64,000 nt of DNA, taken from NCBI RefSeq assembly GCF_053078305.1, contig NZ_CP166879.1; one strand, given 5' to 3'. A program made the translations under genes and the position numbers. Positions within the stretch are counted from its first letter, which is position 1. Each line of letters starts with the position of its first letter. The notes beneath the pieces were generated by a model that searched no databases, was not told the DNA's origin, and was given only the letters and a program-made list of their open reading frames with translations. Below are positions 74-18,313 of this stretch, one piece after another.

Positions 74-640
74 TTAACCGTGGAAGTGCGTCCAGAGGAT
101 CTGGACGCCGATGCCGATCAGCACCAGCCCGCCGAGAATTTCCGCTTTTTTCCCAATAATTGAGCCGATAAAGCGACCAACCATCATCCCTAATGTCGAC
201 ATAATCAAGGTTGCACAACCAATGGCCAATGCGGTCGCGATAATGTTGACCTGAAGGAAAGCAAGACCAACACCCACAGCCATGGCATCCAGGCTGGTGG
301 CAATCGCGGTGGTTACCAGTAGCCAGAAACCGTGCCGACGGCGCGGCTCTTCATCTTCATCATCTGCGCCACGAAAACCCTCAATAATCATTCGCCCGCC
401 GAGGAATATCAGCAGCACAAACGCAATCCAGTGATTCCATTCAAGGACAAACCGGCTGGCTAACATGCCCATTCCCCAGCCGATCAGCGGCGTCAGGGTT
501 TCGACGGCACCAAAAATAAGGCCGGTTCGCAATGCTTCAGAAAATTGCGGTTTATGGAGGGTGGCACCTTTACCGATTGATGCAGCAAATGCATCCATCG
601 ACATACCAAACGCAAGAAGAACAGTAGCAGTGATATTCAT
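74..640 (-). CDS. mntP: Manganese efflux pump MntP (188 aa)
   Basis: Multi-TM protein with acidic loop DDEDEE; start taken at internal ATG 638-640 with AGGA Shine-Dalgarno; the six-frame ORF 74..883 is an in-frame read-through of the 5' leader. Confidence 0.9.
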
Positions 641-865
641 GACAACGTCCTGACCGGGGTATCCATAAAACACATCATCGCCCCCAGCAAACATGCATAC
701 ATGAACAACAAGCCGCGATGGGTTTTCGCGTTCATGCAGGCATAGCGATTGATGTGCATATGGTCTCGCCTGACTGAAAGTCTTCAGTCCGTACGTGCCA
801 CGTTTTGCAACGAGTATGTTGACACGTACATTTCCGGAATCTGGAAATTGGCTACTCCCCAAATG
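641..865 (-). ncRNA. Long structured mntP 5' leader, consistent with the yybP-ykoY Mn2+ riboswitch
   Basis: About 225 nt untranslated leader directly upstream of mntP start, contains GGGGAGUAGCC-type element; family assignment from established knowledge of mntP leaders, not folded here. Confidence 0.55.
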
Positions 866-1010
866 AGGGCGCAACCTTAACATATTTTGAGAATATAAAA
901 CAACTGTTGGAATATATTATTTTATTGCTTTGTTGATAACGATTTTCATTTAGATTTATATATCAATGAAACGTTAAAATAAATAACAAATAAGGGAAGA
1001 GGTAATATAG

Positions 1011-1063
1011 CCTAAGCTATGTCTGATTATTAAAAATACACTAAACATAGCTTTGGCTAAATT
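1011..1063. promoter_or_regulatory. Candidate MntR operator(s) upstream of mntP
   Basis: AAACATAGCTTTGGCTAAATT at 1043-1063 resembles the MntR box AAACATAGC-N3-GCTATGTTT; inverted partner AGCTATGT at 1015-1022. Confidence 0.45.
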
Positions 1064-1069
1064 AATAAC

Positions 1070-1528
1070 TCATTGAGTTGAAACGAGAAGTTTATAAATT
1101 CTTTCCAGATCGTCGATATTTCGAACGCGGATTAACAGCCGACGCTGTTCTAATTGCATCACCAACACGCCATCTTCCGACAAGTTCATCGCTTTGATTC
1201 GGCTATATTCAATCCAGACATTGGCGAAGAAAAAACCTTTTTGTTTAAAGATGATCTTCGGAACGCGGATCCAGAATATATAAAAACCCATCAGAGCCAG
1301 TGCGCTTAATAACCATGTCGTTATTAACGCACCATGATTCGTGACGTTGTTATAGATAAGAATGACAATCAATCCGACGAAGATAACGCTATCGATGCGA
1401 CCACGCCGGAGCAAAGGAATTGCCAGCAGGGTGGGGCCGTTACGGCGGGGCATGATGAACTGATCGTAGATCGCGAAGGCCAGGAGTGCGGCGATGAAAA
1501 GAATCAGTACCAGGTCCGTGATTGTCAT
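1070..1528 (-). CDS. yobD: UPF0266 inner-membrane protein YobD (152 aa)
   Basis: Full ORF, hydrophobic TM segments, GGAGGA Shine-Dalgarno upstream of ATG; conserved position between mntP and manZ. Confidence 0.85.
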
Positions 1529-2446: not shown

Positions 2447-3247
2447 TTAGTCCAGTTCGTTATCGAGATCGTTGTTACCAGCTGCCTGAGCAGGCGCACC
2501 GGCTACGCGGTTGTATTTCGGGCTAAGTTGGATGTAGAGCACTGCCATAACAGTACCAATCACACCCAGAGCAACCAGGTTAAAGTTGGTGAATGCTGCG
2601 GTTACGAAGCCGAGGTAGAAGAACGGCATCAGGTAGCCAGCACGCATCATGTTGATAACCATCGCATAACCAACCACCACGATCATGCCACCGGCGATAT
2701 TCAGACCATTGGTCACCACTTCCGGAATCGCATTCAGCATGTTCTGTACTTCGCTGGTACCTACAGACAGCGCAACGATGACGGCCGGAATAGCCACACG
2801 CATTGCTTGCAGGAACAGAGAAGAAACGTGGATCCAGGAAATCGCTGTCAGGTTGCCGTTATCAGCAGCCTTATCCGCAGCGTGCTGGAAAGCAACGGTA
2901 ATAGTACGAACGATGATGGTCAGTACCTGGCCCGCAGCGGCCAGAGGGATTGCCAGTGCAATACCTGCACCAATGCTCTGATGACCTGCGATAACCAGAA
3001 TGGTAGAAATGATAGATGCCAGAGCGGCGTCAGGCGCAACTGCAGCACCGATGTTCATCCAGCCCAGCGCGATCATTTCCAGCGTACCACCGATAATAAT
3101 ACCGGTTTTCATATCCCCAAGAACGATACCCACCAGGGTACACGCGATTAGCGGACGGTGAAACTGAAATTCATCGAGGATTGATCCCATACCTGCGATA
3201 CAGGCTACGATAAATACCAGCACAATTTGAAGAGTGGTAATCTCCAT
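2447..3247 (-). CDS. manY: PTS mannose transporter subunit IIC (ManY)
   Basis: 266-aa polytopic membrane protein, 3 nt after manZ start, operon arrangement. Confidence 0.95.
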   Translation of the reverse strand: MEITTLQIVLVFIVACIAGMGSILDEFQFHRPLIACTLVGIVLGDMKTGIIIGGTLEMIALGWMNIGAAVAPDAALASIISTILVIAGHQSIGAGIALAIPLAAAGQVLTIIVRTITVAFQHAADKAADNGNLTAISWIHVSSLFLQAMRVAIPAVIVALSVGTSEVQNMLNAIPEVVTNGLNIAGGMIVVVGYAMVINMMRAGYLMPFFYLGFVTAAFTNFNLVALGVIGTVMAVLYIQLSPKYNRVAGAPAQAAGNNDLDNELD

Positions 3248-3309
3248 TGTACTTCTCCTGTTTACGTAAGACTAAAGTGTGAAAACTGAGTGATAATCAA
3301 CACAATACG

Positions 3310-4281
3310 TTACTTATCGATTTTGCTGATCAGATCCATCATTTTCAGTTTCGGATCGGTGGAAACCTTACGGACTTCCAGCTCAATACCGCGTGCATTC
3401 AGTTTTTTGAACGCCTCGATATCTTTTTCATCAACCGAAACCGCGTTATTCACCTGGGTTTTACCCTGACGGAATGCCATACCACCGACGTTAACAGAGG
3501 TGATTTTCACGCCGCCTTCAACGAGACGCTCTACATCTGTTGGGTTGGTAAATAACAGCATTACACGTTCGCCAGCATATTTCGGGTTGTTGTAGACGCG
3601 AATCATTTTGGCAACATCAACTACGTGTGCTGTTACGCCCGGAGGTGCAACCTGGGTGAGCAGTGTCTTACGAACGGTATCCGCAGCCACTTCATCACTA
3701 ACAACAATAATACGGGAGACATTGGTTTCTTTGGTCCAGCGGGTGGCGACCTGACCGTGAATCAGACGGTCGTCGATACGCGCAAGGCCAATAACCATGT
3801 AGTCGTTTGGCCCCATTGGTTTTGCCGGAGTTGGAGCCGATTTTGGTGCTGCGGCAGCGGGTGCTGGCGCGGCTTTTTCAACCGGTTTGGCTTTCAGTGC
3901 TTTCACGCCTTCACGGCCTGTTTCTACTGCCAGCGCAACCAGTTCATCAAAGCTTGGGTCATCATCACGAGCCATTAACGTTTCCACGAGCATTGGAATG
4001 TTAACGCCTGCAATGACTTCATAATGCTCTTTGTCGACGACAATGCGGCTGGCAGCATTGAACGGGCTGCCTCCCCATGTATCAACGAGAAACAGCACGC
4101 CTTTAGTGGTGTCGAGTTTTGCCAACTGAGCGTTGTACTTTTCAATCAGCGTTTCGGCATTTTCACCTGGAACGAAATCGATCCAGCCGACGTTTTCCTG
4201 CTCGCCTAACAGCATTTCTGCCGTTTTAAGCAACTGCTCTGCAGCCCAACCATGTGTGCCTATAACAATAGCAATGGTCAC
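3310..4281 (-). CDS. manX: PTS mannose transporter subunit IIAB (ManX)
   Basis: 323-aa two-domain protein with Ala/Pro-rich linker KAAPAPAAAAPKSAPTPAKP. Confidence 0.95.
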   Translation of the reverse strand: MTIAIVIGTHGWAAEQLLKTAEMLLGEQENVGWIDFVPGENAETLIEKYNAQLAKLDTTKGVLFLVDTWGGSPFNAASRIVVDKEHYEVIAGVNIPMLVETLMARDDDPSFDELVALAVETGREGVKALKAKPVEKAAPAPAAAAPKSAPTPAKPMGPNDYMVIGLARIDDRLIHGQVATRWTKETNVSRIIVVSDEVAADTVRKTLLTQVAPPGVTAHVVDVAKMIRVYNNPKYAGERVMLLFTNPTDVERLVEGGVKITSVNVGGMAFRQGKTQVNNAVSVDEKDIEAFKKLNARGIELEVRKVSTDPKLKMMDLISKIDK

Positions 4282-16582: not shown

Positions 16583-18268
16583 TTGAAGAAGGTTTGGCTT
16601 AACCGTTATCCCGCGGACGTTCCGACGGAGATCAACCCTGACCGTTATCAATCTCTGGTAGATATGTTTGAGCAGTCGGTCGCGCGCTACGCCGATCAGC
16701 CTGCGTTTGTGAATATGGGGGAGGTAATGACCTTCCGCAAGCTGGAAGAACGCAGTCGCGCGTTTGCCGCTTATTTGCAACAAGGGTTGGGGCTGAAGAA
16801 AGGCGATCGCGTTGCGTTGATGATGCCTAATTTATTGCAATATCCGGTGGCGCTGTTTGGCATTTTGCGTGCCGGGATGATCGTCGTAAACGTTAACCCG
16901 TTGTATACCCCGCGTGAGCTTGAGCATCAGCTTAACGATAGCGGCGCATCGGCGATTGTTATCGTGTCTAACTTTGCTCACACACTGGAAAAAGTGGTTG
17001 ATAAAACCGCCGTTCAGCACGTAATTCTGACCCGTATGGGCGATCAGCTATCTACGGCAAAAGGCACGGTAGTCAATTTCGTTGTTAAATACATCAAGCG
17101 TTTGGTGCCGAAATACCATCTGCCAGATGCCATTTCATTTCGTAGCGCACTGCATAACGGCTACCGGATGCAGTACGTCAAACCCGAACTGGTGCCGGAA
17201 GATTTAGCCTTCCTGCAATACACCGGCGGCACCACAGGTGTGGCGAAAGGCGCGATGCTGACTCACCGCAATATGCTGGCGAACCTGGAACAGGTCAACG
17301 CCACCTATGGGCCGTTGCTGCATCCAGGTAAAGAACTGGTAGTAACGGCACTGCCGCTGTATCACATTTTTGCCCTGACCATTAACTGCCTGCTGTTTAT
17401 CGAACTGGGTGGGCAGAACCTGCTTATCACTAACCCGCGTGATATTCCAGGGTTGGTAAAAGAGTTAGCGAAATATCCGTTTACCGCTATCACTGGCGTT
17501 AACACCTTGTTCAATGCGTTGCTGAACAATAAAGAGTTCCAGCAGCTGGATTTCTCCAGTCTGCATCTTTCCGCAGGCGGTGGGATGCCAGTGCAGCAAG
17601 TGGTGGCAGAGCGTTGGGTGAAACTGACAGGACAGTATCTGCTGGAAGGCTATGGCCTTACCGAGTGTGCGCCGCTGGTCAGCGTTAACCCATATGATAT
17701 TGATTATCATAGTGGTAGCATCGGTTTGCCGGTGCCGTCGACGGAAGCCAAACTGGTGGATGATGATGATAATGAAGTACCACCGGGTCAACCGGGTGAG
17801 CTTTGTGTCAAAGGACCGCAGGTGATGCTGGGTTACTGGCAGCGTCCGGATGCTACCGATGAGATCATCAAAAATGGCTGGTTACACACCGGCGACATCG
17901 CGGTGATGGATGAAGAAGGGTTCCTGCGCATTGTCGATCGTAAAAAAGACATGATTCTGGTTTCCGGTTTTAACGTCTATCCAAACGAGATTGAAGATGT
18001 CGTCATGCAGCATCCTGGCGTACAGGAAGTCGCGGCTGTTGGCGTACCTTCCGGCTCCAGTGGTGAAGCGGTAAAAATCTTTGTAGTGAAAAAAGATCCA
18101 TCGCTTACCGAAGAGTCACTGGTGACTTTTTGCCGCCGTCAGCTCACGGGCTACAAAGTACCGAAGCTGGTGGAGTTTCGTGATGAGTTACCGAAATCTA
18201 ACGTCGGAAAAATTTTGCGACGAGAATTACGTGACGAAGCGCGCGGCAAAGTGGACAATAAAGCCTGA
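16583..18268 (+). CDS. fadD: Long-chain-fatty-acid--CoA ligase FadD
   Basis: 561 aa from TTG at 16583 preceded by AGAGGTGAAG; track ORF starts 22 codons upstream. Confidence 0.92.
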
Positions 18269-18286
18269 GCGTTAAGTCAGTCGTCA

Positions 18287-18313
18287 GACGCCGGTTAATC
18301 CGGCGTTTTTTTT
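18287..18313 (+). terminator. Intrinsic terminator downstream of fadD
   Basis: ACGCCGG-TTAAT-CCGGCGT hairpin followed by T8. Confidence 0.85.

Follow-up and report, generated by a model that had tools for sequence, protein, structure and literature searches.

What controls the manganese exporter gene mntP, and at how many levels manganese acts on it, is the question raised by positions 641-1063 of the window, the whole 64,000-nucleotide stretch of DNA that was analysed. This region very probably exerts a two-layer manganese control of mntP, in which MntR operators are combined with a Mn2+ riboswitch. The elements in the sequence, with their statistical significance, degree of conservation and helix covariation, were computed here; the Mn response, the roles of MntR, Fur and H-NS, and Rho termination are taken from the literature on Escherichia coli K-12.

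The mntP locus and the limits of its leader

Positions 560-1120 of the window, which is E. coli O157:H7 DNA, are 100% identical to strain TR01 of this serotype; of 5,422 complete E. coli genomes, almost all show 95-99% identity to them. The synteny yobD-mntP-rlmA is that of the 100%-identical O157:H7 chromosome, with manZ, yobD (1070..1528) and mntP following one another in this order on the minus strand and rlmA convergent to them. The coding sequence of mntP corresponds to WP_001296134.1 in the RefSeq entry for the same O157:H7 record; its product matches the Pfam family Mntp (PF02659, E=1.5e-55) and 80 orthologues can be aligned with it from residue 1. Comparisons were based on mntP loci from 80 species-level Enterobacteriaceae genomes, with 78 sequences in the leader alignment.

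The 5' end of the transcript was positioned by means of the published numbering, in which A11 lies in L1 and A48 is the first nucleotide of L3 (PMC12153347); applied to the present sequence, this numbering puts the predicted transcription start site (TSS) at window position ~866, six nt upstream of GGGG. The sequence-only reading had held that a leader extending from 641 to about 865 is long enough for a Mn2+ riboswitch, in agreement with both this TSS and the covariance-model match to RF00080 that lies inside the leader (see below).

The same stretch is traversed by an uninterrupted, ATG-initiated open reading frame (ORF) of 269 codons (74..883, minus strand), so that mntP could in principle be a longer gene, with a coding leader and an N-terminally extended product. 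The chance of this is practically negligible: Pfam Mntp covers only residues 112-263 of the conceptual protein, whose extension matches nothing and overlaps covarying RNA structure; indels in the leader are not multiples of three; the ATG at 883-881 falls inside the predicted -10 region, upstream of the predicted TSS; and the RefSeq gene encodes a protein of 188 aa, not 269 aa. The ORF had already been described as artificially long, and the Pfam span, the RefSeq start and the position of the predicted TSS all identify it as a chance extension of mntP. The RNA leader that precedes the 188-aa gene is thus the subject of what follows, and its elements, together with those upstream of it, are collected in Table 1.

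On the other side of the gene, matches to the cspA thermoregulator (RF01766; ~131-134 bits) were observed in three of the orthologous loci (L049, L056 and L057; ~2930-3414, minus strand), which belong to Kosakonia, Enterobacter and Trabulsiella. They lie beyond rlmA, by K-12 cspC synteny, at least ~900 nt downstream of the end of mntP, and presumably reflect a cspC homologue.

Table 1. Features of mntP and its control region, in window coordinates; negative positions are relative to the predicted TSS
Feature	Position	Strand	Details
mntP coding sequence (Mn2+ exporter)	74..640	-	188 aa; start ATG 640-638
40-codon ORF in leader	637..759	-	TGA overlaps mntP ATG; judged non-coding
mntP 5' leader	641..866	-	~226 nt in O157, 225 nt in K-12 (one base fewer)
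Expression platform	647..763	-	RNAalifold consensus structure
Shine-Dalgarno-like CAGGAC	647-652	-	
ACCCCGGU	653-660	-	
Long platform helix	arms 745-763 and 663-681	-	Consensus structure
G-run GCUGGGGGC	680-688	-	
Inner platform hairpin	692-744	-	Lineage-variable
Mn2+ riboswitch aptamer (yybP-ykoY)	760..866	-	RF00080 match and covariation
3' L1/P1.1 strand	760-771	-	AGGCGAGACCAU
Strand opposite L1	762-771	-	AGGCGAGACC with GAGA
P4	772-790	-	
P3	791-829	-	L3 CAACAUAC at 814-821
P2	830-848	-	
P1.2	849-851 with 768-770	-	GCC with GGC
L1 5' strand	852-862	-	GGGGAGUAG at 852-860
Putative sigma-70 promoter	874..903	-	-35 TTGTTT (898-903), 18-nt spacer, extended -10 TGTTAAGGT (874-882)
AT-rich upstream DNA	880..1000		20.7% G+C, against 49% for the window
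Fur-box-like site	935..953	-	CTAAATGAAAATCGTTATC; centre near -78
Conserved palindrome	970..977		TTAACGTT; ~90-100% conserved in 78 species, flanks variable
Proximal MntR operator (predicted)	1005..1022		ATATAGCCTAAGCTATGT; centre ~-147.5; 1 mismatch to ACATAGC-N4-GCTATGT
Distal MntR operator (predicted)	1045..1062		ACATAGCTTTGGCTAAAT; centre ~-187.5; 2 mismatches to the same pattern

The riboswitch aptamer and its expression platform

With default settings, Rfam scanning of the whole window yielded no riboswitch and only sroD. The latter is a full-length match to RF00370 at 18227-18312 (plus strand; 115 bits, E=1.4e-22). When positions 500..1200 were scanned permissively, RF00080 was matched at 772..868 (minus strand) with a score of 40.1 bits and an E-value of 2.3e-9; because this score is below the curated gathering score of the family (45), the default scan misses the mntP riboswitch. 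RF00080 was likewise matched by all 19 orthologous enterobacterial leaders that were scanned, at 35.5-55.6 bits, and since nine of these leaders are above the cut-off and ten below it, a single orthologous group is bisected by the threshold. The covariance search that the sequence-only reading had proposed as a check on the riboswitch is therefore positive, if sub-threshold; the outcome that it had named as telling against the riboswitch, namely no match to the model, would have led to a wrong dismissal at the default setting, whereas the permissive scan provides the match. For the RF00080 family, the absence of an Rfam hit is an unsafe refutation, about half of the enterobacterial orthologues being missed by default.

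Independent evidence comes from the alignment of the 78 leaders. The metal-binding loops L1 GGGGAGUAG, with the strand opposing it (GGCGAGACC), and L3 CAACAUAC (ACAUAC) are invariant or nearly so across the 78 species, and helices P1.2, P2, P3 and P4 are all recovered by RNAalifold. Over the 51 proposed pairs (those of the aptamer and the platform helix, plus an alternative hairpin), 98.7% of the cells of the 78-species alignment are paired, compared with 28-44% in slid controls, and compensatory changes are found in 27 of the 51; the observed values were reached by none of 500 shuffles. Within the aptamer, P1.2, P2, P3 and P4 are 94-100% paired and contain 2, 3, 4 and 7 compensatory pairs, respectively: those of P3 are distributed between its outer segment (three) and its inner segment (one), while every one of the seven pairs of P4 covaries. 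P1.1 is invariant and, as such, uninformative for covariation. Folding of the leader itself is more stable than that of shuffled sequences (z=-3.2) and recovers the aptamer helices.

The resulting architecture consists of two coaxial legs (P1.1/P1.2/P2 and P3/P4) that meet at a four-way junction and are supported by covariation, and the aptamer lies directly 5' of the Mn2+-transport gene mntP; these are among the features by which membership of the family was judged. In K-12, the mntP leader is a Mn-responsive translational riboswitch (PMC12153347, PMC11647493, PMC8632737), and both Mn2+ binding and expression switching have been reported for this ~98% identical orthologue (PMC12153347, PMC11647493, PMC9603457). 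The assignment of a Mn2+ riboswitch to the mntP leader, made at the outset from the letters of the DNA, is borne out by the RF00080 match, the invariant L1 and L3, the covariation of the helices and the 19 of 19 orthologous leaders. Our analysis supports a yybP-ykoY riboswitch in this leader, which by analogy with its K-12 orthologue would respond to Mn2+.

A natural deletion affecting this region was observed in E. coli B1172 (L086, NZ_CP120549.1, ~1471-1660). Homology with the window ends at ~848, inside the aptamer, where the mntP side is joined to a truncated manZ pseudogene; the strain has thereby lost yobD, the two MntR boxes and the mntP promoter, as well as the L1 strand on one side and the C-terminal part of manZ on the other. 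In B1172, mntP could then only be expressed by read-through from manXY.

Downstream of the aptamer, the long platform helix (alignment columns 156-168 with 233-245) shows compensatory changes in nine of 11 pairs, and its 5' arm opens with CCAU, the 3' strand of P1.1. The inner hairpin (columns 169-220 of alignment A2) is found in Escherichia, Citrobacter, Salmonella, Klebsiella and Raoultella; it is wholly absent in Enterobacter, Lelliottia, Kosakonia, Cedecea and others and is therefore dispensable for the conserved switch, its presence or absence by lineage accounting for the range of leader lengths across the orthologous loci (164 to 223 nt). In the O157-type leader, the terminator scan flagged the CGCGA-loop-UCGCG stem of this region (714-730, minus strand), which is followed by GCUUGUUGUU.

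The unconstrained consensus fold pairs L1 UUGGGG (857-862) with CCCCGG (654-659), adjoining the Shine-Dalgarno-like (SD) sequence, and this agrees with the published disruption of P1.1/L1 without Mn. Specifically, co-transcriptional probing showed that P1.1 undergoes strand invasion when the transcript is ~205 nt long; at that point P1.1/L1 is disrupted in the absence of Mn, and the switch helix pairs within the platform (PMC12153347). A mechanism may be proposed in which, without Mn2+, the weak P1.1/L1 region would open, its CCAU strand joining the helix between 745-763 and 663-681 and the UUGGGG of L1 becoming free to pair with CCCCGG immediately 5' of the SD. This putative off state, the exact pairing of which we infer, would initiate translation poorly and then suffer Rho termination of the untranslated leader; Rho-dependent termination in the untranslated mntP leader is a documented additional layer in K-12 (PMC11647493). 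With Mn2+ bound, docking of L1 on L3 would lock P1.1 and block the long-range closure, and mntP would be translated.

Constraining the fold from a free to an aptamer-locked state raises the predicted accessibility of the SD from 0.37 to 0.53 in E. coli; the same procedure yields a change of ~0 in Enterobacter and Klebsiella and a reversed one in Cedecea, so that the effects are small and inconsistent. Because no clear effect of Mn on the ribosome-binding site (RBS) was seen in a 2025 probing study either, the step from aptamer to RBS is not explained by simple sequestration. A tentative and rather doubtful suggestion is that the state of the aptamer might reach the RBS by an exchange of partners instead, CCCCGG pairing either with the UUGGGG of L1 or with a conserved G-run nearby, ACUGGGG/GCUGGGG (682-688). 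The two pairings survive in a divergent group of four sequences (two Cedecea, one Buttiauxella MAG and one 'Enterobacter sp.') in which the tract reads CCCCAA, a group that amounts effectively to a single evolutionary event.

Control of the leader could also be sought in translation of an upstream ORF (uORF), either the 40-codon ORF of Table 1 or a short ORF from the conserved AUGs at ~664-675, by way of termination-reinitiation coupling or protection from Rho. The 40-codon ORF ends with ATGA across the mntP start and is annotated by PGAP as a hypothetical protein (WP_000547919.1) in some O157 records, an SD-like G-run lies 5' of the conserved downstream AUGs, and Rho does act on the mntP leader; nevertheless, several observations make this explanation very unlikely. 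In K-12, whose RefSeq record contains no such protein, a 1-nt deletion frameshifts the 40-codon ORF into one of 27 aa that ends 34 nt before the mntP ATG; its AUG at +108 occurs only in Escherichia and in a small number of Citrobacter loci (L018, L026, L038); it has no Pfam match; and the literature search returned no paper linking mntP to a uORF. As for the downstream AUG, which is invariant in the 78 species, its frame coincides with that of mntP in 22, enters mntP out of frame in a further 24 and meets a stop codon at the start of mntP in the other 32, a split that leaves no frame constraint on it, and the nucleotides of the AUG region are conserved as partners in covarying helices. A regulatory uORF in the mntP leader was rejected on the ground that its reading frame is not conserved, and the 40-aa WP_000547919.1 is probably an annotation artefact, not a gene.

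Operators and promoter upstream of the leader

Further upstream, AAACATAGCTTTGGCTAAATT at 1043-1063 and AGCTATGT at 1015-1022 had been singled out by the sequence-only reading as palindromes resembling MntR operators. Both are present exactly at these positions; AGCTATGT is indeed of MntR type but is only the right half-site of the 18-bp ATATAGCCTAAGCTATGT, which constitutes the proximal box. The distal box begins 8 nt beyond the stop codon of yobD (1070-1072), and both boxes have the form by which operators were recognised here, an 18-bp inverted repeat A[CT]ATAGC-N4-GCTAT[GA]T. The pattern used for comparison, ACATAGC-N4-GCTATGT, is one that we take to be that of the mntH operator; as a check on it, K-12 was examined and matches were found in the promoter regions of mntH (0 mismatches) and mntS (2 mismatches). 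A search for ACATAGCNNNNGCTATGT at up to two mismatches yields exactly two matches in the 64 kb, 1005-1022 and 1045-1062, against 0.14 expected by chance, and in none of 100 shuffles were two matches obtained.

The boxes are also conserved with the locus. The proximal one is found at up to two mismatches in 78 of 78 orthologous loci, 158-163 nt upstream of L1, and the distal one at up to three mismatches in 72 of the 78, with a start-to-start separation of 40-45 bp. In these 78 loci the cores of the boxes are 90-100% conserved, variation is seen in the middle of the N4 spacer and between the boxes, and the distance from the proximal box to L1 is fixed while the length of the leader floats. With only two matches in the window, a pattern shared with mntH and mntS and this degree of conservation, the suggested resemblance to MntR operators is upheld, and the upstream palindromes are supported as predicted sites that fit the MntR operator motif. 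MntR-dependent activation of mntP has been described in K-12 (PMC11647493, PMC8632737), and MntR sites are marked in the mntP promoter in Fig. 1 of PMC9806134. Mn2+-loaded MntR dimers would occupy the two operators 40 bp, or about four helical turns, apart, at ~-148 and ~-188.

Any palindrome can by its nature pair with a second copy of itself, and the inverted repeat that the two boxes create (1003-1064) might instead be taken for an RNA stem-loop at the yobD 3' end, a terminator or stabiliser rather than protein-binding DNA. Its predicted folding energy is -24.1 kcal/mol (z=-4.65), its start is only a few nt beyond the stop codon of yobD and it draws weak matches to miRNA-precursor models. 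We nonetheless regard an RNA role as highly improbable, for the AU-rich stem is followed by UAUUACCUCUUCCC and not by a U-tract, the terminator scan did not call the hairpin, and only the two operator cores are conserved, with variable sequence in the inter-box 'loop' and on the flanks; moreover, the boxes keep a fixed distance from the mntP promoter, and the same motif recurs at the promoters of mntH and mntS, sites at which no gene terminates. The weak miRNA-precursor matches (993-1074, both strands) were discarded as an artefact of the hairpin formed by the two palindrome copies, and the 59% complementarity of the inter-box spacer is uninformative since each box is itself an extended palindrome.

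Between these MntR boxes and the leader, a conservation profile over the 240 nt upstream of L1 reveals a series of islands: the box cores, TTAACGTT, a Fur-like block and a promoter block. The last of these (871-904) is the best-conserved non-coding block upstream of the leader, with 80-100% conservation per column in 78 species, and contains a conserved extended -10 located 7-8 nt upstream of the predicted TSS. A simple sigma-70 consensus scan did not call a promoter at 874-903; conservation and position with respect to the literature-derived TSS suggest that this element, including the hexamers listed in Table 1, is a weak extended -10 promoter.

The palindrome TTAACGTT has the proximal MntR box on one side and the Fur-like block on the other. 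Compared with the 19-bp Fur consensus GATAATGATAATCATTATC, the site at 935-953 matches at 14 of 19 positions, a score equalled by 4.9% of shuffles of the AT-rich region and hence marginal by motif alone; the 26-nt block that holds it is 90-100% conserved in 78 species, and Fur is known to regulate mntP (PMC11647493, PMC8632737). The site is a candidate Fur box, as judged from its sequence and conservation.

According to the passage of the review PMC8632737 that cites Dambach 2015, H-NS represses mntP and this repression is relieved by MntR and Fur, as in a proposed counter-silencing model. The AT-rich DNA at 880..1000 is a plausible candidate for the H-NS-silenced region, and MntR boxes centred at ~-148 and ~-188, too far from the promoter for classical activation, fit the published model of relief from H-NS silencing (PMC8632737). 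MntR, together with Fur at its candidate box, would then counteract H-NS silencing of promoter DNA with a G+C content of 21%.

Comparison with known systems

The closest known system is the K-12 mntP (yebN) riboswitch, a member of RF00080 ('Manganese') at the same locus and upstream of the same gene. The two control regions are ~98% identical over 561 nt, with 12 differences in 561 aligned columns, and have L1, L3, the helices of the four-way junction and the platform helix in common. Relative to K-12, the O157-type leader carries a G->A change at 849 and a U->G change in the P4 loop, as well as one extra C and an A->G change in the inner hairpin, which create a perfect 5-bp CGCGA...UCGCG stem in place of the weaker K-12 stem; this variant of the leader is found exactly in 920 of 5416 complete E. 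coli genomes.

The MntR operators of E. coli mntH and mntS are the same 18-bp palindrome as the mntP boxes. At mntH and mntS, however, the box is close to the promoter or the start codon, consistent with repression, whereas the two boxes of mntP lie ~148 and 188 bp upstream of its TSS, and activation is what has been reported for this gene. At the K-12 mntH locus (L083), the perfect MntR box (2222-2239) was observed to lie inside the small ORF ypeD (b4819, 2188-2277), a reading frame overlapping the start of mntH; unlike mntP, the gene for the Mn importer thus has an annotated small ORF upstream.

The E. coli alx riboswitch belongs to the same aptamer family and also exerts translational control of a Mn exporter, but it differs in having a three-way junction, U as the first nucleotide of L3, a platform of several helices that includes an intrinsic terminator, and a response to pH; mntP is characterised by a four-way junction and a single-helix platform (PMC12153347).

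Every functional element discussed here matches what is already known of K-12 mntP, including its MntR-activated promoter, Fur and H-NS input, riboswitch and Rho termination. We did not find described the TTAACGTT block, the two alternative partners of CCCCGG or the O157-type indel that strengthens the inner hairpin. In itself, finding the mntP control region again adds no new biology; its by-products are the caveat on the Rfam threshold and the PGAP 40-aa artefact. What the region offers is a textbook-level case of layered metal homeostasis, in which a transcription factor, a riboswitch and Rho converge on one exporter gene.
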